A stretch of DNA of 64,000 nt from an uncultured Methanosarcinaceae archaeon (GTDB lineage Archaea > Halobacteriota > Methanosarcinia > Methanosarcinales > Methanosarcinaceae), in the NCBI GenBank assembly GCA_963727895.1, contig CAVSHT010000004.1:384001-448000 (forward strand), written 5' to 3'. A program made the position numbers and the translations under genes. Below are positions 5,160-38,353 of the stretch, one piece after another; within the stretch, counting starts at the first letter, position 1; each line of letters opens with the position of its first letter. Below the pieces are notes generated by a model, which was given only the letters and a program-made list of their open reading frames with translations, searched no databases and was not told the DNA's origin.

Positions 5160-6303
5160 ATGAGTAAAGAAGAATATGAAAAAATACCTAAAATCAGTCG
5201 TGACATAATGCATAAATATGTCACATCAATGCAAGTGAGTAGGAAGGTCAAATCGGACATAACAGTCAAGAATAACGTCGCTGTTGTACGATTTATGCTG
5301 AGAAATATAAAAAAGACCTAGACAATCTGACGATTGATGATGTAGAAGATATACAGGCTGCTATAAATATTTGGAAACGACCTGATGGCAAACCTGTGGC
5401 TGATGCCAGCAAAAAGGTATATACAGCAGGCATAAAGAAATTTCTCAAATGGTACGCAAAAAGATATGAACAGCCGAAATATAAACATTTTTCAGATCAA
5501 ATTGAACTTGGAGGACAAACGAAGAGGGTTCAGGCAAACGACCTTTTGACAACAGCTGAAATTGAAAAAATGATTGCCTAAGCTGATAAGCCGAGGGATA
5601 AAGCGATAATTGCTGTCTTGGCTGAGAGTGGCTGTCGTGCAGGTGAAATTGCATCGTGCAGGGTTCAGGATTTTGAATTGACACAAAATGGTGGAAATCT
5701 TACATTCCCCAAAGGCAAGACAGGTCCTCGTACAGTGCCTCTAGTATTCGCAGCTCCATATATTGATTATTATTTAAGACAGCATCCAAGCAATGACAAT
5801 CCTGATGCTCCGCTCTGGCTTGCAGGTGGGCAGAATGTGCGGAGGAGTATAGGCTATGGCAGATTTATAGCATCGTAAAGGAAGTTGCCAGAGACACTGG
5901 GATAAAGAAGCGAATCTATCCACACTTGTTCCGTCACACAACAGCGACTCAGCTAAGTAAGGTCTGGGGCGAATCAATGATGCGAACTTATCTTGGCTGG
6001 GAATCCGGTAGTGCAATGCCTTCATTATACATTAGTCTAAGCGGGGAGGATGTTGAGAATGCTGTTCTTTGTGACCGTTATGGGCTTGTTGAGAAGAAGC
6101 AAAATGATAAAGGTTTAAAAGTTGGGAAGTGCCCAAAATGCTGGAAGATGATACCGGCTAATGCGACGTTCTGCCACAATTGTGGGGCACCCCTCACAAA
6201 AGAAGTTCAGCAGTCAAATGATATTGCAATGAAAGAGTTTATGGCTGCAATTATTAGCGACCCGAAACTCGCAGAAAAATTTACAGCTTTGATACAAAAG
6301 TAA
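5160..6303 (+). pseudogene. Tyrosine recombinase/integrase with C-terminal zinc ribbon, broken by two frameshifts and a stop
   Basis: AESGCRAGE (R), KGKTGPR (K), YPHLFRH (HxxR), YLGW...SLY, CPKC..CHNCG. Confidence 0.9.
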
Positions 6304-25496: not shown

Positions 25497-26476
25497 TTAT
25501 AAACCAATCTGACATCGATATAATATGTCTTCAGCATGAATTTGGACTTTTTGGGGGAAATGCGGGAGACTACATTTTTGCTCTTCTTTCAAGAATCAAC
25601 AAGCCTATAATAAGCACGATGCATACAGTAATCTGGGAGCCTGAACCTGAATATCGAGTGTCCACAGAAAAACTCATCATGTATTCCGAAAAGCTAATTG
25701 TAATGAGCCAGACTGCGGTAGATATACTAAAAAACATTTATAAAGTTCCTGAGGACAAAATCGAATTAATCTTTCATGGAGTCCCTGACTATCCGTTTAA
25801 CAACTGCACTAAGTATAAGGAAATGCTAAATCTAAAAGGGACTCCGCTTGTTCTTACTTTCGGCTTGCTTAGCCAGAATAAAGGTATTGAAAATATACTT
25901 GAGGCTCTTCCTGAGGTTGTGAACCAGTATTCTGACATCGTTTATCTTATACTTGGTGTTACGCATCCTATAATTAAAAAGAATTTTGGAGAAATGTATA
26001 GGCAGTCTCTCAAGAATAAAGTATCAGAATTCAATCTTGAGAAGAATGTGATATTCCATGACAAATTTGTCGAAAAAGAAGAACTTTGTAACTATATTCT
26101 TGCCAGTGACATTTACGTATCTCCTTACCTCTCTCAAGAGCAGACAGTAAGCGGTGCTCTAACCTATGCAATTGGCATGGGAAAAGCAATCGTTTCCACT
26201 CCTTATTGGTACGCTCGAGAAATGCTTTCCGACAATCGGGGGTTACTTGTTGATTTTGGAGACACGGATGGCTTTAAAAAATCTCTCTTGCACTTAATCG
26301 AAAATCCAGAAGAGTATGATAATATGCGTAAAAAAGCATACGACTTTGGTAGAAAAATGACATGGAAGAACATAGGTAGAGAATATAATGTTATTTTTAA
26401 TAAGGCTTTAAAGAATTACAATACCTATTACAAAATTCGAAATAGATTTAATTTTCCTTCCGAACCAGCTGTGTGA
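25497..26476 (+). pseudogene. Glycosyltransferase family 4, 5'-truncated by IS6
   Basis: LQHEFGLFGG, FGLLSQNKGIE, SGALTYAIGMGKAIVSTPYWYA; first codons of the ORF lie in the IS6 TIR. Confidence 0.88.
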
Positions 26477-26900
26477 AGTAAAACTTGATTATCTTTCATT
26501 TGTATTCGGTTAAGGAATCTGTTAACGTTACAATGACTACTGTAATAATTTATGCATCTCGATTTATATTTATCGGTTTACAGAAATAGCAACAAAAATA
26601 ACACATTTCTTAAATCGTATCTTAACCGAATACAAATAAATCCTTATTATGATTTTTTTGCAACAGAACCCTTAAAATATTCATTTTTTTGAGGTAAAAC
26701 ATTTTTACAGGAAGAGGCAACATTTTGAACAAACTGTTGTCTTCTCTTTTGTCTTCTCTTTATAGATAGGTCTTACCTCAAAACCCCTGCATCATAAATT
26801 AGAATTTACATAACATCTGATACACTGTATTCGACACACTGTCCATTCCAATCTCCAGTAAAGTATCTGCTTACATAGACATCTTTGATCATGCACAAAC

Positions 26901-27308
26901 TTAGGCAGGAGATTCCTTATTCATGATATAAGTAACCATTCCAGGGGTAAGCTTGCTTTCCCTTGAAACCTTTGCTTCAATGTCCTCAGTGGATTTACCT
27001 TCGATTTTCATTTCCTTTATTTTCTCAATAACTGAGGATGGAACTGTGTAATATTCGTTTATGTCCCTCCTGTGGCCCCAGACATCGCCTTCGATAAGCT
27101 GGATTCTCTGCATCTGAAGGAACATTTGAATAGAGTTTGAAACCGTAACCATGTAAGATTTAGGTAACTGAATTACCTCAATTTTTGGGCAGGTCTCAAC
27201 CAGTGCAAAGATATCCTTGTTTGACGGCCTAAAGGCCAGGTGAACAATACGCTCATTAGAATTTAATGTAAAAATTTCTTCTCTTGAACTAACTACTCGA
27301 ATTCTCAT
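26901..27308 (-). CDS. DUF1699 family protein
   Basis: MRIRVVSSREEI..ERIVHLAFRPSNKDIF..EGDVWGHR. Confidence 0.9.
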   Translation of the reverse strand: MRIRVVSSREEIFTLNSNERIVHLAFRPSNKDIFALVETCPKIEVIQLPKSYMVTVSNSIQMFLQMQRIQLIEGDVWGHRRDINEYYTVPSSVIEKIKEMKIEGKSTEDIEAKVSRESKLTPGMVTYIMNKESPA

Positions 27309-27846
27309 ATTTTCCCCCGCTATAAACTTTTTTAGCTATGGTTTGATTATAATATATATAGGCTGATTATAAAAAATTATCTCATTGAACTAACATTATT
27401 TACACACGGCTATGGAAATAAAACTGAACTTTGAAATAAACACTGATCAGTGAATTCTCCATAAAAATTACTTTCGAAAAAGATATACCTTTAGCGTACT
27501 CTTTGATAGTTTTTGAAGCAGTGACGCGTAAATCTATAACAGTAAAAAACAATATCAATCGGGTCTTTTTCAGACGTGCTGTTTTTCTTTAATAATAAAA
27601 AGTTGTTAAATAGGACCATTTATCGAAGGAAACAAGCATATTCCGATAAACTTTAGAACAATCGAGAAAACAAACACATAGGCAATTGTAGATAAATCAG
27701 CCTGAAATTGGTAATTTTTATTATAATAATCAGACGATAAAACAAAAATAACGTTTTCTGTATTACAGTTATTAGTAAAGTTATGTTAGTTCTGCATACT
27801 AGAGGTATTTTGTAATTTTTCAGATATCTTTTATCATCTTCTCTTT

Positions 27847-28467
27847 TCATTTATTTGAAGTAGCGTCATCTAAAACTTGATAAATTAAAGTGTTCATAAC
27901 TTGTTTTACAGCTTCTTCGTCATCGATGTCTTTTATTTCCAAAAGAAGCATGTCACCCATAACTCTATGAATATAGGTATCTGTTACTCCTTTAGCTTTC
28001 CCCCATTTTCTCAAAACTGAATCTAATTCCTTATCCATCTCTTGAAAATACGTACTCAATTGACTTAGTTCAGCAATCATTTCTTCTTACCCTCGCGTAT
28101 GGCTCATCTTCATGGCACGATTCCAGAAATAATGGTGTGCTACAAAGTTTCTCTTCTTCAGAGCATCGGCAAGCTTCTTTTCAAAATCATCTGGTAGATC
28201 AACAGACTTTTTGATTTGTGTTATCATTTGACCCAACGACTTAGTAAATTTTTTTTCAAGAATAACATCGTATTCCTCTCTGGTAAATTTATCTGCATTT
28301 GGGTTATATACGGTAGCTCCTAACATGGCTAAAGTTCTTTCTAAACACTGGATGTAATACATTGTAACTCCAAAGAAGGCGTAAATCTGTCTACAACGGT
28401 ATGATTCAGGATCAAGTGTAATATTGTCTTCATAATGAGCATCATTATCCATAGCATCTACCAACAT
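27847..28467 (-). pseudogene. Hypothetical protein split by one in-frame TAA (28087)
   Basis: 28087..28467 and 27847..28080 are in frame; KRNFVAHH resembles an RxxxxH (HEPN-like) motif. Confidence 0.6.
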
Positions 28468-28994
28468 CTTAATTTAAAACAGCTAACTCAAAATCTTTTC
28501 TATCTTATCTCTCACATTCTGAACCCTTATCAGCGTAGCTGTCACCACCCGCAAAGTAGGCCAAGTTTTTGACTTGGGTCTTATTGTGTATAAAGAAACA
28601 GATCAAGTTATTAATGGACCTATCAATGGATCTTTAGATGTAGAAAAGTTAGGGTGGTTCGAATTAACTCCAATGGGGCAGAAGGTTCTTAATAAAAATC
28701 AGAATATTTGAATTTTGAGGCTTAAAGAGAAGCCCAGGAAGAGCAAAACAGAAGGAGTTTAGTATTTTCTATGCCAATTTGAGAGAGCTTTTAAAAGGCT
28801 CTCTCTGTATTTTTAAAAAAGGAAGATTCTACTTTTTCACTTTAAGTCTAGGTAATTTAGTATAACCTATGCATTTTGTTCACATATCTGTGAATATCTA
28901 GGCATTTGACTTTGAATTTACAGAAAAATTGAAACAGGACACTTAATTAAAAATATAATAAATTATTAGTAATGTATAATCTGTAATTTAATTA

Positions 28995-29614
28995 ATGACT
29001 GACTCTACTATTTTGCCTTCAACAATAATGGGAACCATTGGTGCTTTATATGCAATCTTTGTTATAATAATGCAACCTATAGCAGTAGATAAAAACAAAT
29101 TTATAGCAGATCCAGTTAAAATTTTTAATTTCAATAAAAAAATAAATTTTTTCAAAACACTTTTTGAAGTTCTTGCATTTTTAGTAATTGTTTGTGAAGC
29201 GTACAACGGTATGATTGTTTACTTATTTTCTGACTCTATAATTGACAATTTCAAAACTCTTTTTGATCCTTTATATTCATATTTTCATACTTTAATCGGC
29301 CAATTTTATTTATTAATTTCATATTGTTTTTTTTAGTTTCGATTGCTTACATTATTGGCTTTTCTTATTATTTGGTTCAGTTTAAGATTTCTTTAGACAA
29401 TGATAATCCTAATTTTCATATTTCCCAATTTTTAGATTCGTTTAACGCTATTAATTTTTATAATGCAATTTCTTATCTAACCCTATTTTTTCTTATTTTA
29501 ACAGCTGTTTGCTTTACATTAGTTAAAATAAAACTTTCTTTTATACAGTTTATCTTTGTGTTAATTCCATGTGTGATTATTCTCTGTATTAAATTTATAT
29601 TTAGGTATCTATAG
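28995..29614 (+). pseudogene. AT-rich multi-pass membrane protein, frameshift at poly-T (~29330)
   Basis: Two overlapping hydrophobic ORFs joined at a T9 run. Confidence 0.6.
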
Positions 29615-29775
29615 AAATTTAATCAAAACGACATTTTAATGATGCACAGATTTTATAGCAAAACCTATGCATTATGAAATATATATAAATAACTTTCAAT
29701 TAGTTTTTATAAATTCATAAGCAAAGATCATATAACATATGTATAAAAGTAATTAATTTGTGGTAAGGCTTAAAA

Positions 29776-31074
29776 ATGGAAGCTGAAATTAAAGTAATTG
29801 AAGTACACGAATTTATTTGTAGGTTTAAAAATCTAATTATAAATAAAAAGGCAAAATTTTCCTTATTTTTGGGTGCAGGCTGCTCTGTGTCATCAGGTAT
29901 CTTAACTGCGGGATTCCTCGTAGACAAAATATGGCTTCCAAAACTTAAAGAAATTGAAACAGGAGATCAGGAAAACCTCGGGGAATGGTTGAAAACAAGA
30001 TTTCCAAGTTATAACAAGAATAACGCAGCACAACTTTGCGGTGAAATAATAGAAACTCTTTTTCCAACTCCAAAAGAAAGACAAACAGAAATAGAAGACT
30101 TGGTTAAAGATTGTGATCCTGGATTTGGTTATGCTATTTTAGCAAAGCTAATGGAAAAATATAATGTTCAGTGTAACATAATTCTCACTACAAATTTTGA
30201 TGATATGATTGCAGATGCACTTTATCTTTACACTTATCAAAAGCCTATTGTTATTTTTCATGAAGCCCTCGCTGGCTTTTTAAAAATAGCCGATACGCGC
30301 CCTATGATAATTAAGTTACATGGTGACTCAAAACTTTCTCCACTTAATACGAAAGATGAAACTGATACATTAAGTAATAAAATAATACCAGTAATTAAAA
30401 ACATATTTTCAGAAACAGGACTAATATTCATTGGATATGGAGGAAATGACAGTAGCATTAACAAAATTCTTGATGAAGTATCTGATGACCAAGGCTCTTT
30501 CCCATGGGGTATTTACTGGATAGGAGAAAGAATACCAGAAAACGAGATGGGAGAATTTCTTAGAAAGAAAAATGCACTATGGGTAAAACACAAAAATTTT
30601 AATGAGCTGATGCTTTTCATAAAAGAAGAGCTAGAGCTTGAATTGCCTACAAAAGATAGATTTGATGTTTTATTTAATGGTCTTTTTAGTGAATGTGAGA
30701 ACTTAACTAAGATGGTTTACGAAAAGCCAAATTATGATGAGAAGGAACTGCTTGAAAAAGCCGTTAAAAAAGCATCAATGGAATTAATGATATCTGTAGA
30801 GCCAATACCCCAGCCAATGATATCCCCTATATGTTATGAAATTTCCAGCTTAATGACAGCGGCTCAAGCAGCTGCTAAAGATATACAACTTTCCGGCTTA
30901 ATGACAGCTACTCAAGCTGCTAAAGGTTTGAAAATGCCCACGAGCCCAATATTAAATATTGAAGAAACCTCCGAAACTTGTATAAACTCTACAGATCATG
31001 AAATAGATGAAAAACTAGAAACATCTAAAGAAGAAATCTCTCAAGATAAGAAAAAATATGAAATAAATGATTAA
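29776..31074 (+). CDS. SIR2-family (SIR2_2) protein, putative NADase
   Basis: LFLGAGCSVSSGI, ILTTNFDD, IIKLHGD, FIGYGGND. Confidence 0.9.
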   Translation: MEAEIKVIEVHEFICRFKNLIINKKAKFSLFLGAGCSVSSGILTAGFLVDKIWLPKLKEIETGDQENLGEWLKTRFPSYNKNNAAQLCGEIIETLFPTPKERQTEIEDLVKDCDPGFGYAILAKLMEKYNVQCNIILTTNFDDMIADALYLYTYQKPIVIFHEALAGFLKIADTRPMIIKLHGDSKLSPLNTKDETDTLSNKIIPVIKNIFSETGLIFIGYGGNDSSINKILDEVSDDQGSFPWGIYWIGERIPENEMGEFLRKKNALWVKHKNFNELMLFIKEELELELPTKDRFDVLFNGLFSECENLTKMVYEKPNYDEKELLEKAVKKASMELMISVEPIPQPMISPICYEISSLMTAAQAAAKDIQLSGLMTATQAAKGLKMPTSPILNIEETSETCINSTDHEIDEKLETSKEEISQDKKKYEIND

Positions 31075-31336
31075 TCCAGTGGAAACATTGTATAAAAAGT
31101 TACGAGAAAAATCAATTTTCAATAAGGCACTAAATTAAATATTATACATGATTTGACATGAAAGTTCTTTAAAGTACTTTCATATTTTGTGCCTGTTTTT
31201 TGAAGAATTTCATGTTCGTTTTAAGTGGAAAATATCCCAAAAAAATTTCAATTATGCACAGTTTTTATTGTAAAACCTGTGCATTTTTGTGTAAATATCT
31301 ATGCACTTTACTATTTTAATATGCTTCATGTGTTTG

Positions 31337-31735
31337 TTAGTGATTTATGGAAGATTCGATAATTCGCTTGCAAATATCGTCCATCAGCTTCCAGTAATCT
31401 CTGACTTGTTGGTAGATTTCTTCTATTGCTTCTTCATCATACGTATGAGTACTGAGATTTCTATCATCGGTCATTTCAAGGACTTTTACAGTTTCTTCCT
31501 CCGAAATTATACCTACCTTAAATGCTTCTCTAAAACAAGATTTAGGTGAAGCACACTCAATGCCTTCCTTAACTCGAAGATAATCTTTTATAACCTTCCA
31601 GAAAATGTCAAATGAGTACTCAAATCTTTTAATTGAAGCATCTCTTACTATTGTTGAATATGGTTCATCAACAATTTCTTCTAAGGTTTTCAAAGCTTTT
31701 ATTGCAGTTTCAGATCTAAGCTTTAATTTTTCCAA
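31337..31735 (-). CDS. HEPN toxin (HI0074-like nucleotidyltransferase substrate-binding family)
   Basis: RDASIKRFEYSF, SPKSCFREA, DDRNLSTHTY (R-x4-H). Confidence 0.9.
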   Translation of the reverse strand: MEKLKLRSETAIKALKTLEEIVDEPYSTIVRDASIKRFEYSFDIFWKVIKDYLRVKEGIECASPKSCFREAFKVGIISEEETVKVLEMTDDRNLSTHTYDEEAIEEIYQQVRDYWKLMDDICKRIIESSINH

Positions 31736-32034
31736 ACAATACCCTCTCTAAGTGCCTTTTCTCTAAAAGCTTCCGAGACTCTGGAAAGATCTACCACATC
31801 AACAGTATAGGGAAAATTAAGATTATCAATCTTTTCTTTCAATATAACCAATTTTTTCCTGTCCAATCTATTTTCTGGAAGAATTCCAATGTCTATGTCC
31901 GAAACTTTATTATAATCCCCTCTTGCTCGCGAACCAAAAAGTATTACAATAACGTTTTCTTCTTTGAAAAACTCAATAATGAGGGATTTCAAATCTCTTA
32001 TACTTTTTTGGTAAATAGGGGTAAGACTGTTCAT
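31723..32034 (-). CDS. Minimal nucleotidyltransferase (MNT) antitoxin
   Basis: LFGSRARGDYNKVSDIDIGI; overlaps the HEPN gene. Confidence 0.9.
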   Translation of the reverse strand: MNSLTPIYQKSIRDLKSLIIEFFKEENVIVILFGSRARGDYNKVSDIDIGILPENRLDRKKLVILKEKIDNLNFPYTVDVVDLSRVSEAFREKALREGIVWKN

Positions 32035-32476
32035 CTATTACTCATTTAGAGGTTTCAATACTTGAATTTAATGTTTGAGACCACCTTGAAATTAAAAATA
32101 GTGATAATGTTAAAAAATAGGCAACTCATATTATACACAATTTTTATTAAAATCTGTGTATTTCAAGCACTTTTAGCCTCATTTTCGGGTAAAAAATGAG
32201 TCAAAAAGGGCCAAAATACACAGGTTTTACAATAAAACCTGTGCATAAACAAAACAAAAAAGCAGAAACTTTACTAGCTAAACAGTAATGAGATATTTTT
32301 ATAGAACTCATTGCTTATTTTGCCTTTTTGGGCGTTGGGCAAAAAAATCTTTAAGACATTAAAAAGTTGAAGACTTGAAATTCAACAAAAAATTTATATC
32401 TATTAATTGTGTAGTAATGTTAACACCTAAGATATTTTTATAACATTACTTCAAAATCGTTGATTCCATTTATTAC

Positions 32477-32553
32477 TAGGATTTACGCGGTTGAGAAATA
32501 AAATCAGGTGCAAATAGCCTTATCAGAATTTCAGTTCAACTACGTAAGTCCTA
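32477..32553. mobile_element. 77-bp MITE with IS701-like ends
   Basis: TAGGATTTACGC ... ACGTAAGTCCTA, like the ends at 84 and 879. Confidence 0.65.
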
Positions 32554-32658
32554 TATTACTATATCCATATGTGGAATCTTACGAAAATGGATCTCTTAGT
32601 AATTTTACCTTGTAGATATATGCAAAGCAGAAAAAAATAAAAAAGTCACTGAATATAA

Positions 32659-32775
32659 TAAGACTTACGCCCTTCTGAGGCGAAAATCAACTACAGTAAA
32701 AACCGCATGTAAGATTTTGATTTCCGAAATTTTCGATTATTGGCGTTGATTTTATACCCAAATGCGTAAGTACTG
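32659..32775. mobile_element. ~117-bp MITE with IS701-like ends
   Basis: AGACTTACGC ... TGCGTAAGTAC. Confidence 0.6.
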
Positions 32776-32795
32776 TCTAAATAGGGTGATTAAGA

Positions 32796-33542
32796 ATGGA
32801 ATATGAATTGGATATTAATATAGTTAATACTGATCAAGACCCGACTCTAACTAAGCTACACAATGGTAAATACAATTTATACATATTTAAGGCTGTACAG
32901 AGTAGTGCAGCAGGAGGCGCTCCTCTTGTCTGGCAGGGTTATAGGTATGATGAATATGAAGATGATACCACACTAACTTGGACTGAAATTTACTCAGGTT
33001 TTATTTCAAAAATTGTAATTGCTCCTGACGTAAGCTTCTTGAGTACGAAATCTATATCAATGGATTTTGGTGATATGCTTGTCGTTGATTCAAGTGGTAA
33101 CATAATAAAAAATAGCAGCGGTCAAAAAACTGATTTCGAATTCCAAGATACTAACACCGATATTGATTATACATGTGGAATTTGTCAGAAGGATCGAAAT
33201 GGTAAAATGGTTCCAATGTGTGCCTTTCCCCTAATTACAGGTGCGACAGATTATATAACACCAATTGAAAAAGTAGGTCTATTTTTTGCAACAGCGCCAA
33301 TAAACACTGGTTCTGTAAAAGAATATTCAAAAGCCAACGATGGTATTATTATTGATTTAACTAATCCAAATATAAAACGCTCTGTAGAATTCAGCCTTAA
33401 AACTGGATGGAAAACAACAGACAGTATTGACAATGGGCAACACTTTGGGCCTAATGATAAGTTAGTCGATATTCTAATCACATCGGATCAGGATATGAAA
33501 TTAGCCAAAGCAGTAATTGCTCCAAGCATATCTAAAAATTAA
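32796..33542 (+). CDS. Beta-rich hypothetical protein (248 aa)
   Basis: GGTGA RBS; long uninterrupted ORF. Confidence 0.75.
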   Translation: MEYELDINIVNTDQDPTLTKLHNGKYNLYIFKAVQSSAAGGAPLVWQGYRYDEYEDDTTLTWTEIYSGFISKIVIAPDVSFLSTKSISMDFGDMLVVDSSGNIIKNSSGQKTDFEFQDTNTDIDYTCGICQKDRNGKMVPMCAFPLITGATDYITPIEKVGLFFATAPINTGSVKEYSKANDGIIIDLTNPNIKRSVEFSLKTGWKTTDSIDNGQHFGPNDKLVDILITSDQDMKLAKAVIAPSISKN

Positions 33543-33604
33543 ACTTGATTGTACGTTTAGGATAGGACTCATATACTTGAGCCAAAAAACGATAGCGTTG
33601 AACA

Positions 33605-33788
33605 TTTAAATTGACATTCCGCAGAATCTTCTGGAAATTAAAGTTAAAAGCTTTCATTAAAGGCATATAATCGGAAAATGTGAAATGTTTCTAAAATATG
33701 CTTAGATAGGCAAAACAATTTCCAGAAAAAAAACGATAGCGAGAAATTTGTGGAATTTTAGTGAACATCTAAGGAATGTCAGTTTAAA
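33605..33788. mobile_element. 184-bp MITE
   Basis: TTTAAATTGACATTCC / GGAATGTCAGTTTAAA, 15 of 16 inverted match. Confidence 0.7.
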
Positions 33789-34165
33789 CATTTAAAATAT
33801 TAATTTTAACCATAACGTCTAGGTACTTAATTTTAAGTCTCAAGTGCGTATGATCTTGTGGGATCAAGTGATAGCCTTAAAGACAATTTGTACCTGAATT
33901 TCTGAAAATATTATAATCTGAACTTCAAGTTATTACTTCACATTATCCAATGATAGAAAAGATTTAACTTTTTAATAAACTATAACTAAGTTTAACTGTT
34001 GTAGTGTAGAAACAAAATTTCCACAGTTTGATACTATATAACTTTCCTTTGTATACCTTTTTCTCGATAATGAGAATGGTTAACTTTTCTAATTATAAAG
34101 GTTTCGCTAATTTTGCGATAAAGCTAGGTTTTTTCACTGCAACATATTTTTTAGAGGGATTGAAA

Positions 34166-36796: not shown

Positions 36797-38353
36797 TTAC
36801 CAAAATTTATACCATGGTTTTTTTGTTTCCGGTATTTCAATTGATTTTTGATTGATTACATGAGTATTTAAGCAAGAAATATGAGCATTTGTTTCATTAC
36901 TTTTAGGTTTCTGTTTTTCTGCTTCTTTTCCTTGAGCTATTTGTTTTAGGAGAAAGTCGTAATTCTTTTGTGCGTTTATATTTTTAGGATCATATTTTAT
37001 AGCAATCTTAAAATGTTCTTCTGCCTCTTTTTTTCTCCCTGTTTCTGCAAGAAGAACACCATAATTATTGTGCGCATTTGCATTGTTAGGCTCATATTCT
37101 AAAGCCAGTTTATACTGTTCTTCTGCCTCTCTTTTTCTTCCCATTTGTCTAAGGAAATCTCCATAATTGTTGTGTGCAATTGCAGAAGTAGGGTTACATT
37201 CAAAGGAAATCTTAAAATGTTCTTCTGCCTCTTTTTTTCTCCCTGTTTCTGCAAGAAGAACACCATAATTATTGTGCGCATTTGCATTGTTAGGCTCATA
37301 TTCTAAAGCCAGTTTATACTGTTCTTCTGCCTCTCTTTTTCTTCCCATTTGTCTAAGGAAATCTCCATAATTGTTGTGTGCAATTGCAGAAGTAGGGTTA
37401 CATTCAAAGGAAATCTTAAAATGTTCTTCTGCCTCTTTTTTTCTTCCTGTTTTTGCAAGAAGAACACCATAATTACTGTGCGTATTTGCATTATTAGGCT
37501 CATATTCTAAAGCCAATTTATACTGTTCTTCTGCCTCTTTCTTCCTTTCAGTTTCTGAAAGTAGTAATCCATAATTATTGTGCGCATTTGCATTGTTAGG
37601 CTCATATTCTAAAGCCAATTTATACTGTTCTTCTGCCTCTTTCTTTCTCTCCATTTGTCTAAGGAAATCTCCATAATTTATGTGTTTGTTTGCATTATTA
37701 GGCTCATTTTCTAAAGCCAGCTTATATTGTTCCTCTATTTCTTTATTCCTTTCTTGTGGTGAGAGATATCCATAATCATTGCATACAATTGCTCTAGTAG
37801 AATTAGAGTCCAGAGAAAACCTAGAATCTTTTTTTCTATTCTCTAGTTTTCCCTCTTCTTTGTTTTTCTCTATAAATCTGTTCTTATTTTCTGTATGGTA
37901 TCTAGAGTCATTTAGTTGCACATCTAAATCTACAGCAGTTGAGATGAGTTTAGATTCCTTTTCTTTACAAGAATCAAGGATCCTGGCATATGATTTGTTT
38001 GAGTGCATTCTCCAGTCTATATAAGAAAAATGAGCAATGATATCAGGTATAGTGCAATCTATAATTAGTAGTGGAATTAAACGACGCTTTGTATTTGTAG
38101 GATCACGAAAAAGTATAGACTGATGCTCCAGTTTTCCCCATTCTGAGCCAAAATAATCTGGAGACATACACATTAAAAGCGTGTAGGATTTTTCTAAACC
38201 TTGTTGAATCTTTAAAGGAATAGAATCTCCAGGTTGAATAACCCATGAGTCCAGCCAAACGCGCACACCATCCTTTTTAAGTCTCCTAGCAAGAGCATGT
38301 ACGGTCCTTCGATTATTCGAACTGTAGCTAAGGAAGACATCATATTCGAACAT
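36797..38353 (-). CDS. TIR domain plus TPR-repeat protein
   Basis: YDVFLSYS..GVRVWLD..IQPGD..SPDYFGSEWGKLE; about 8 TPR units of 34 aa. Confidence 0.92.
   Translation of the reverse strand: MFEYDVFLSYSSNNRRTVHALARRLKKDGVRVWLDSWVIQPGDSIPLKIQQGLEKSYTLLMCMSPDYFGSEWGKLEHQSILFRDPTNTKRRLIPLLIIDCTIPDIIAHFSYIDWRMHSNKSYARILDSCKEKESKLISTAVDLDVQLNDSRYHTENKNRFIEKNKEEGKLENRKKDSRFSLDSNSTRAIVCNDYGYLSPQERNKEIEEQYKLALENEPNNANKHINYGDFLRQMERKKEAEEQYKLALEYEPNNANAHNNYGLLLSETERKKEAEEQYKLALEYEPNNANTHSNYGVLLAKTGRKKEAEEHFKISFECNPTSAIAHNNYGDFLRQMGRKREAEEQYKLALEYEPNNANAHNNYGVLLAETGRKKEAEEHFKISFECNPTSAIAHNNYGDFLRQMGRKREAEEQYKLALEYEPNNANAHNNYGVLLAETGRKKEAEEHFKIAIKYDPKNINAQKNYDFLLKQIAQGKEAEKQKPKSNETNAHISCLNTHVINQKSIEIPETKKPWYKFW

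Follow-up and report, generated by a model that had tools for sequence, protein, structure and literature searches.

Palindromic sites at the borders of gene blocks in Methanosarcina genomes and a candidate short tyrosine recombinase

We analyzed a stretch of 64,000 nucleotides (the window; positions 384,001 to 448,000 of contig CAVSHT010000004.1, assembly GCA_963727895.1, genome G000 below) from an uncultured Methanosarcinaceae archaeon, in which 31-bp palindromes border a SIR2-domain gene and a toxin-antitoxin (TA) pair. Comparison of contigs indicates that these palindromes are breakpoints at which gene blocks swap neighbours, and that they are likely the crossover sites of a tyrosine recombinase of about 200 amino acids (aa) composed of the catalytic domain only, a reading to which we assign a probability of roughly 0.8. 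An initial annotation of the window, made from its letters, had regarded the palindromes as sites of the tyrosine-recombinase type; this view was borne out by breakpoints inside the sites and by their two arms around an asymmetric centre. The sites of the window, with their scores on a position weight matrix (PWM), are as follows.

26762-26792, additional site of the same form that the initial annotation had overlooked, centre ACCTC, 27.7 bits; 109 bp beyond the end of a DUF1699 gene
28844-28874, decayed site, right arm intact and left arm eroded, 11.2 bits
29642-29672, full site, centre ATAGC, 40.3 bits
31254-31284, full site, centre ATTGT, 42.3 bits; located where the SIR2 and HEPN genes converge with their 3′ ends
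32216-32246, full site, centre ACAAT, 43.6 bits; site I of the leader described below

The two sites at 31254 and 32216, identical in their centre (ATTGT and its reverse complement ACAAT), are in inverted orientation and bracket the HEPN/MNT pair, as first described; the related site at 29642 was likewise recovered. The degenerate site proposed at 28844 has one good arm and scores only about 11 bits, which makes it a half-site. Its right flank is common to the full site C5:182048 and to loci L207, L224 and L225 of other genomes, and as this homology stops in or at the site we consider it a decayed junction.

The geometry deduced from 214 sites is 13-5-13, ATRCAYAGDTTTT-RNNNY-AAAAHCTRTGYAT, for a total of 31 bp, and not the 11-7-11 arrangement of the initial annotation. 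The centre typically reads R-T-N-G-Y on one strand and is strongly asymmetric, positions 15 and 17 being complementary in 34 of the 214 sites when 72 were expected. Excess complementarity between the two arms of one site was missing at 12 of 14 arm pairs, the exceptions being pairs 9/23 (p 0.0015) and 6/26 (p 0.03), and folds of the sites revealed no conserved bulge or extrahelical bases. Such limited covariation fits binding of the double strand rather than of a hairpin.

In G000, the palindromic consensus had 22 matches with at most 7 mismatches over 28 positions, against 0.67 per locally shuffled genome. A PWM trained on the genome's own consensus matches gave 23 matches of at least 22 bits against none in two shuffles; 22 of these 23 sites lie outside open reading frames (ORFs) of at least 120 aa. 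The scan of Methanosarcina genomes found sites in 49 of 59, with 0 to 126 copies each, and sites were present in 24 of 201 genomes of the order, from 2 of the 28 genera sampled. An exact-pattern scan of all species genomes returned 104 stretches. Among the 80 of them listed with titles, 72 bore the label Methanosarcina or Methanosarcinaceae, five that of higher archaeal ranks and three that of bacterial metagenome-assembled genomes (MAGs). The last three (L105, L106 and L080) represent two contigs in MAGs labelled Patescibacteria and Ignavibacteria, with sites and genes of the Methanosarcina type; they are likely misbinned, since the recombinase of L105 is 95% identical to one in genome G231.

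Homology breaks at the sites

Pairs of sites that share one flank almost always differ on the other (291 of 301 pairs, 220 distinct sites), whereas control anchors shifted by 250 or 500 bp were one-sided in 21 of 109 cases. To place the breakpoints within the site, we used 20 recent pairs with at least 93% identity, forming 17 independent groups. In these pairs, agreement at variable positions was 55, 50 and 70% for the outer arm (49, 39 and 35% in random pairs), 80-95% for the centre (26-49% in random pairs) and 100, 85 and 75% for the inner arm. As the outer arm is thus near random while the centre and the inner arm are shared, crossover appears to take place at the outer edge of the centre, with the caveat that position 9 is above random (70 versus 35%) and that the sample is small. 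Homology therefore breaks inside the site, as the spacer breakpoints envisaged at the outset would have it.

Several blocks recur between sites in new surroundings. The MNT-HEPN block is 87-94% identical in genomes G223, G231, G186 and G214, each time with different neighbours; the match begins at the 31254 site in the first three, and in G214 the pair has its own two flanking sites. A whole module of G000 (C5:182048-183645) is 98.6% identical over 1602 bp, from site to site, to locus L215 of genome G136, and another is common to loci L119 and L146 (96.5% over 1820 bp, also site to site). A piece of a metagenome contig, 93% identical over the SIR2 block, starts exactly at 29642. The sequencing runs consisted of contigs throughout, and no run covered as much as half of the stretch; the short joints found in them probably stem from other copies of the site. 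On a provirus-like element that encodes a rolling-circle Rep and carries the recombinase, the backbone is 99.98% identical between genomes G108 and G140 rightwards from the site, to the left of which the cargo differs (Abi_alpha versus ThsB-TIR and others; L211/L212).

Arrays of four to five sites at gene-sized spacing were observed, L216 being one example. This locus (L216:4954-12876) is a related provirus-like element with five sites separating different genes, whose adjoining recombinase is a different PF00589 protein of 191 aa. Tandem full sites 47 bp apart are found at homologous positions in L011:5764-5841, L071:4902-4979 and L144:80-157, one source being a viral contig.

The short tyrosine recombinase

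Clustering of 636 ORFs near sites at 75 loci singled out a protein of about 200 aa at a median distance of 124 bp from a site. It matches PF00589 (E 3e-8), and the catalytic residues R55, K85, K142-x-x-R145, H168 and Y177 are invariant in 28 sequences. A structure model of the 201-aa protein (predicted local distance difference test score, 90.6) has its best fold matches in XerA, an integron integrase and XerH, and comprises the catalytic domain only, without a core-binding domain. The protein scores 19.5 bits on the XerA model, for which the cut-off is 220, and has no match to the IntI model in NCBIfam. Its relatives are mostly 180-230 aa long (515 clusters, E <= 0.001).

The palindrome varies with the enzyme. 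A protein search yielded 17 distinct intact copies of at least 60% identity, of which nine have this site 133-161 bp upstream, four a variant palindrome and four neither. More distant clades carry other palindromes of the same 13-5-13 form, and the palindrome of one of them (clade B), predicted in this way, proved to be multi-copy in 26 of the 59 Methanosarcina genomes. Five clade-B sites lie within 500 bp of a site of the type found in the window (clade A) in G000, against about 0.15 expected (six among the 23 listed, one of which is the clade-A site itself), suggesting junctions used by two recombinases. These clade-B palindromes, 31-450 bp from clade-A sites, are at C4:29659, C5:355198, C7:2495, C17:21637 and C3:47396, none of them in the window. 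The palindromes of clades C and A2 are not dispersed in G000, with 0 and 1 matches, respectively.

At the genome level, sites accompany a close recombinase (E <= 1e-115) in all 16 genomes that have one, and nine of the ten genomes devoid of sites lack any near-complete member of the family, both sets consisting of related and hence not independent genomes. The enzyme is found on mobile elements: all five matches among PLSDB plasmids are Methanosarcina plasmids, and the site lies upstream of the recombinase gene on small replicon contigs (L179/L209, L186/L214 and L188). No recombinase match was found among GenBank phages, and among viral contigs a single locus had sites, the tandem pair of L071, without a recombinase match.

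The leader of the gene accounts for a short segment of the window that, in the alternative offered by the initial annotation, looked like an empty unit of a non-autonomous transposon.

32133..32246, minus strand, recombinase-gene leader made up of site I, 54 bp and site II, followed by MNT-HEPN in place of the recombinase ORF, which is absent
32133..32161, minus strand, site II, a 13-3-13 variant with a centre two bases shorter, found just before the recombinase start in intact loci

Segment 32133-32246 is 82.6% identical over 115 bp to the intact leader of L105 and 81% identical to that of L268. The site II motif occurs 52-54 bp past site I in eight intact loci (L105, L027, L177, L178, L179, L181, L191 and L268), the distance being 54 bp in the window; site II is likely an operator. 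L105 and L268 are organized as site-recombinase-small genes-site (with HicAB among the small genes of L105), the two sites being inverted with centres matching within one base, and a site-recombinase-TA-site unit recurs in L105, L268 and L206. Genome G186 has a recombinase remnant followed by the same MNT-HEPN pair and a site. Given these units and this remnant, the block in the window is most simply explained as such a unit that has lost the recombinase ORF by deletion. With its junction a few bases beyond site II, this deletion was probably not site-specific.

The six genomes with the most sites (52-126) all carry an intact enzyme. It adjoins a gene with an identical translation in five of them, and the same gene read from further upstream in the sixth. 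A full site I upstream of the recombinase was undetected in all six, and site II is mostly kept. On the corresponding contigs (L258-L262 and L180) the recombinase is fixed beside one gene, which we take to be flavoprotein-like from its sequence by eye, and site I is eroded. We read this fixed enzyme as a probable case of domestication.

On the proposed mechanism, one recombinase subunit would bind each 13-bp arm and two sites would pair, with strand exchange across the asymmetric centre (five variable bases, probably a 5-7 bp overlap) when the centres match or nearly match. Excision and integration would result from direct sites whose centres match; inverted sites of this kind would yield inversion, or the exchange in two steps via a cointegrate that has been suggested for pdif modules. 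Originally the enzyme was likely a multimer resolvase of a plasmid or provirus with one site, and sites would then have spread into chromosomes, accessory genes becoming strung between them. Cutting of these sites by the enzyme, the need for matching centres, the operator function of site II and ancestral multimer resolution are all elements that we infer. The MNT-HEPN block of the window would be a site-recombinase-TA-site unit minus the recombinase ORF, on which an enzyme would act in trans. As its sites are inverted with identical centres, the block could flip or be swapped, and not simply excised.

Neighbouring sites had no single orientation (26 direct, 31 inverted and 25 unorientable pairs, n = 82), at odds with the integron-like arrangement initially considered; inverted sites bound the TA block of the window as well as L105, L268 and L100. 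For direct neighbours, 16 of 90 pairs had centres differing by at most one base, where 7.7 would be expected (p 0.004). This excess favours integration of circles as one of the main routes; inverted pairs, such as that of the window, would undergo inversion or cointegrate exchange.

Alternative explanations and related systems

Several observations weigh against this reading. Most sites of G000 are solitary, most neighbouring sites have unmatched centres, and matches between inverted neighbours are not enriched (8 versus 7.6 expected). Ten of the flank-sharing pairs share both flanks, and many such pairs come from related soil MAGs. Homology of the MNT-HEPN block with G186 and G231 stops at about 32081 and not at a site, and homologues of the SIR2 protein with 72-73% identity occur on C11 of G000 and in G222 and G175 without a nearby site. 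Of the two breakpoints in the best provirus comparison (L211/L212), the right one coincides with a site, and at the left one no site was detected. Nine of the 49 site-bearing genomes have no near-complete family member. The clade-A enzyme was not found in the present assembly, which is 84% complete and yielded only a clade-B enzyme and fragments, the best copy being 49% identical and associated with a different palindrome. The link between enzyme and site comes from co-location and co-variation in sequence comparisons of contigs.

The same enzyme and sites might exist without any cassette system, the sites being traces left when a plasmid or provirus resolvase occasionally integrated, deleted or inverted DNA, and whatever lies between two of them being incidental. 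The solitary sites of G000 would fit this explanation, as would the mixed orientations, the unmatched centres and the heterogeneous cargo, and apart from the TA block of the window only two inter-site segments turned up almost complete in another place and bounded by a site on each side. We nevertheless regard it as unlikely: it does not account for arrays of four to five sites at gene-sized spacing, for intact two-site modules in new contexts, for the recurring site-recombinase-TA-site unit, or for the 52-126 sites in the six genomes with a fixed chromosomal recombinase.

A role of the host XerA, acting as XerC/D do at pdif sites with the short recombinase as a passenger or an operator-binding protein, appears very improbable. 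Sites do persist where the cognate clade was not found, this genome included, and G000 has several other PF00589 genes. However, different clades of the short recombinase have different palindromes, the present one went undetected in 10 of the 59 Methanosarcina genomes and in 26 of the 28 genera sampled, and its symmetric 13-mer arms around 5 bp are unlike 11-6-11 dif sites. In addition, no site of G000 flanks any of the 11 PF00589 matches in this genome. The co-variation of the site with a dedicated short recombinase makes it improbable that XerA is the enzyme.

We give very little credit to the idea, raised in the initial annotation, that a non-autonomous transposon has these sites as its terminal inverted repeats, 32133-32246 being an empty miniature inverted-repeat transposable element (MITE). 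The inverted pair around MNT-HEPN, the recurrence of the 115-bp unit in several loci and the wealth of insertion sequence (IS) remnants in the region could suggest it, but this unit is the leader of the recombinase gene, it is the flank and not the cargo that the outer arm accompanies, and neighbouring sites are often direct. Target duplications were not consistent at 11 modules, and copies of the same module had none in common. For the 45 ORF clusters listed, the median distance from sites is 2.4 kb for IS6-like transposases and 124 bp for the recombinase; no transposase bounded by these ends was found in these clusters or among 88 inter-site proteins, save one DDE fragment. Equally implausible is that the palindromes are transcription-factor operators with a regulatory role at gene boundaries, which their dyad symmetry, the location of 22 of 23 outside the larger ORFs and the operator-like site II might recall, since two genes converge with their 3′ ends on the 31254 site, the breaks in homology fall within the sites, the centre has a strong asymmetry and genomes of a single genus have anywhere from 0 to 126 copies.

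Returning to the proposed site-specific recombination by the short enzyme, the system shares features with several known ones. The Cre-loxP and Flp-FRT resolvases use a symmetric two-arm site with an asymmetric centre, and like them the present system has one tyrosine recombinase with such a site near its gene on a plasmid or provirus. It differs by an enzyme of only about 200 aa without a core-binding domain, by five variable central bases, by a second 13-3-13 site at the gene start and by amplification of the sites to dozens or more than 100 per genome. Possession of the catalytic domain only, in about 180-230 aa, is also a feature of the short invertases of the FimB/FimE type. Compared by description only, it is shared as well by archaeal families with a single PF00589 domain (HSTV2-like, fam30-07, -17 and -28) that the available part of Badel et al. 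2021 lists without site or function (PMC8371274), and the recombinase may belong to one of them.

The Acinetobacter pdif sites of Rep_3 plasmids, recombined by XerC/XerD, also separate accessory modules, often TA, by short sites with variable asymmetric centres. According to the parts of two reports available, rearrangement of dif modules requires identical or near-identical spacers and TA modules are common (PMC13141974, PMC11705084), and the pdif site is 28 bp long with distinct XerC and XerD arms around 6 bp (PMC13141974). Here too, exchange apparently needs identical or near-identical centres, as judged from genome comparison, and an inverted pair encloses a TA module in the window. The present sites are symmetric and 13-5-13 rather than 11-6-11 with distinct arms, the enzyme is probably a dedicated mobile one rather than the host dimer resolvase, direct neighbours are about as common as inverted ones, and the sites are mostly chromosomal and archaeal. 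The pdif comparison of the initial annotation thus stands insofar as the sites delimit movable modules; by their structure they are not pdif sites, and by their enzyme probably not either.

As in integrons, a recombinase with an adjacent site, arrays of accessory genes and orphan arrays without enzyme are found, and chromosomal fixation in one lineage accompanies large site numbers. The integron integrase IntI has a core-binding domain and a specific insertion in the catalytic domain, according to the portion of a study available (PMC8138268). No protein of IntI size is present here, the recombinase being a 201-aa catalytic domain only; unlike attC, which is recognized as a single-strand hairpin with extrahelical bases, the sites covary little between their arms and conserve no such bases; and orientation is mixed where integron sites and cassettes all face one way, the modules keeping long non-coding flanks. 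Direct or inverted neighbours together with mixed cargo therefore argue for a pdif-like mode of working, distinct from integrons, pdif/Xer and MITEs.

The literature covered, which included few subscription papers and no supplements, held no description of the site or of the enzyme family, and this recombinase-site system of Methanosarcina is apparently undescribed so far. With somewhat more confidence than doubt, we propose a cassette system based on a minimal (about 200-aa) recombinase family, in which each clade has its own orthogonal 13-5-13 site and at least two site families share junctions in this genome. The enzyme of one lineage would have been domesticated at a fixed locus with loss of its own crossover site, serving 52-126 sites as an archaeal counterpart of the chromosomal integron or dif-module system. 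If true, this would identify a force behind the large accessory genomes of Methanosarcina and their rearrangement, and a pdif-like route in archaea by which TA, defence and metabolic genes move among plasmids, proviruses and chromosomes. It raises the biochemical question of how a tyrosine recombinase without a core-binding domain recognizes a 13-bp arm, and the clades provide a number of recombinase-site pairs that are very small and differ in sequence, and that might serve as genetic tools in methanogens.

Cargo and other features of the window

The genes between the sites of the window are the following.

28995..29614, plus strand, gene for a hydrophobic membrane protein, broken into two frames of 113 aa and 96 aa, no Pfam or PADLOC match
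29776..31074, plus strand, SIR2-domain protein of 432 aa, PF13289 (SIR2_2) E 3e-15, the only gene of the 29642-31284 module
31337..31735, minus strand, HEPN-domain toxin of 132 aa, PF08780 (NTase_sub_bind) E 1e-28, PF01934
31723..32034, minus strand, minimal nucleotidyltransferase (MNT) antitoxin of 103 aa, PF18765 E 4e-16, PF01909

The gene identities agree with those first given, with Pfam support for SIR2, HEPN and MNT. PADLOC profiles of the SIR2 type cover the N-terminal 285 aa or so of the SIR2 protein (best E 5e-40), which by sequence is likely a defence-type NADase domain. The membrane gene is likely a frameshifted cargo gene; it is unrelated to the ORF found at this position in G223.

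Across genomes the cargo is mixed, with TA pairs, SIR2, Schlafen-AlbA and TIR proteins alongside methyltransferases, sensors, pentapeptide and secreted proteins, and the Pfam-annotated part consists mostly of metabolic, secreted or repeat proteins. The array is thus not mainly one of defence cassettes, as had been supposed. TA families match 9 of 88 inter-site proteins and none of 88 proteins from ten random 9-kb regions of G000; this enrichment is only suggestive, because the cargo list was hand-picked from 110 ORFs by removing probably spurious or duplicate ones and adding short ones, several for their TA-like look. PADLOC gave eight matches, mostly to generic domains, for 38 chosen proteins.

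Other features of the window touch the sites less directly. An Rfam search of 26000-34000 had no match, and a promoter scan was at chance level with a model of bacterial type, the host being archaeal. The DUF1699 gene (26901-27308) is one of about nine copies in the genome and is found across the genus and on small replicons near the recombinase; a possible association of DUF1699 with sites was dropped, as only two to three of ten matches were within a few kb of one. A 518-aa TIR-TPR protein with 102-bp repeats (36797-38353) is defence-like and lies outside any site pair, and a broken tyrosine integrase (5546-6036), in two PF00589 pieces with one stop, is far from the sites. Finally, an imperfect palindrome of about 72 bp (31151-31222) has many copies of 80-93% identity across the genus and 26 matches in this genome. 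Some copies adjoin remnants of IS110-like transposases and one lies about 5 bp from the C11:229016 site; the palindrome is possibly a non-coding end of IS110.

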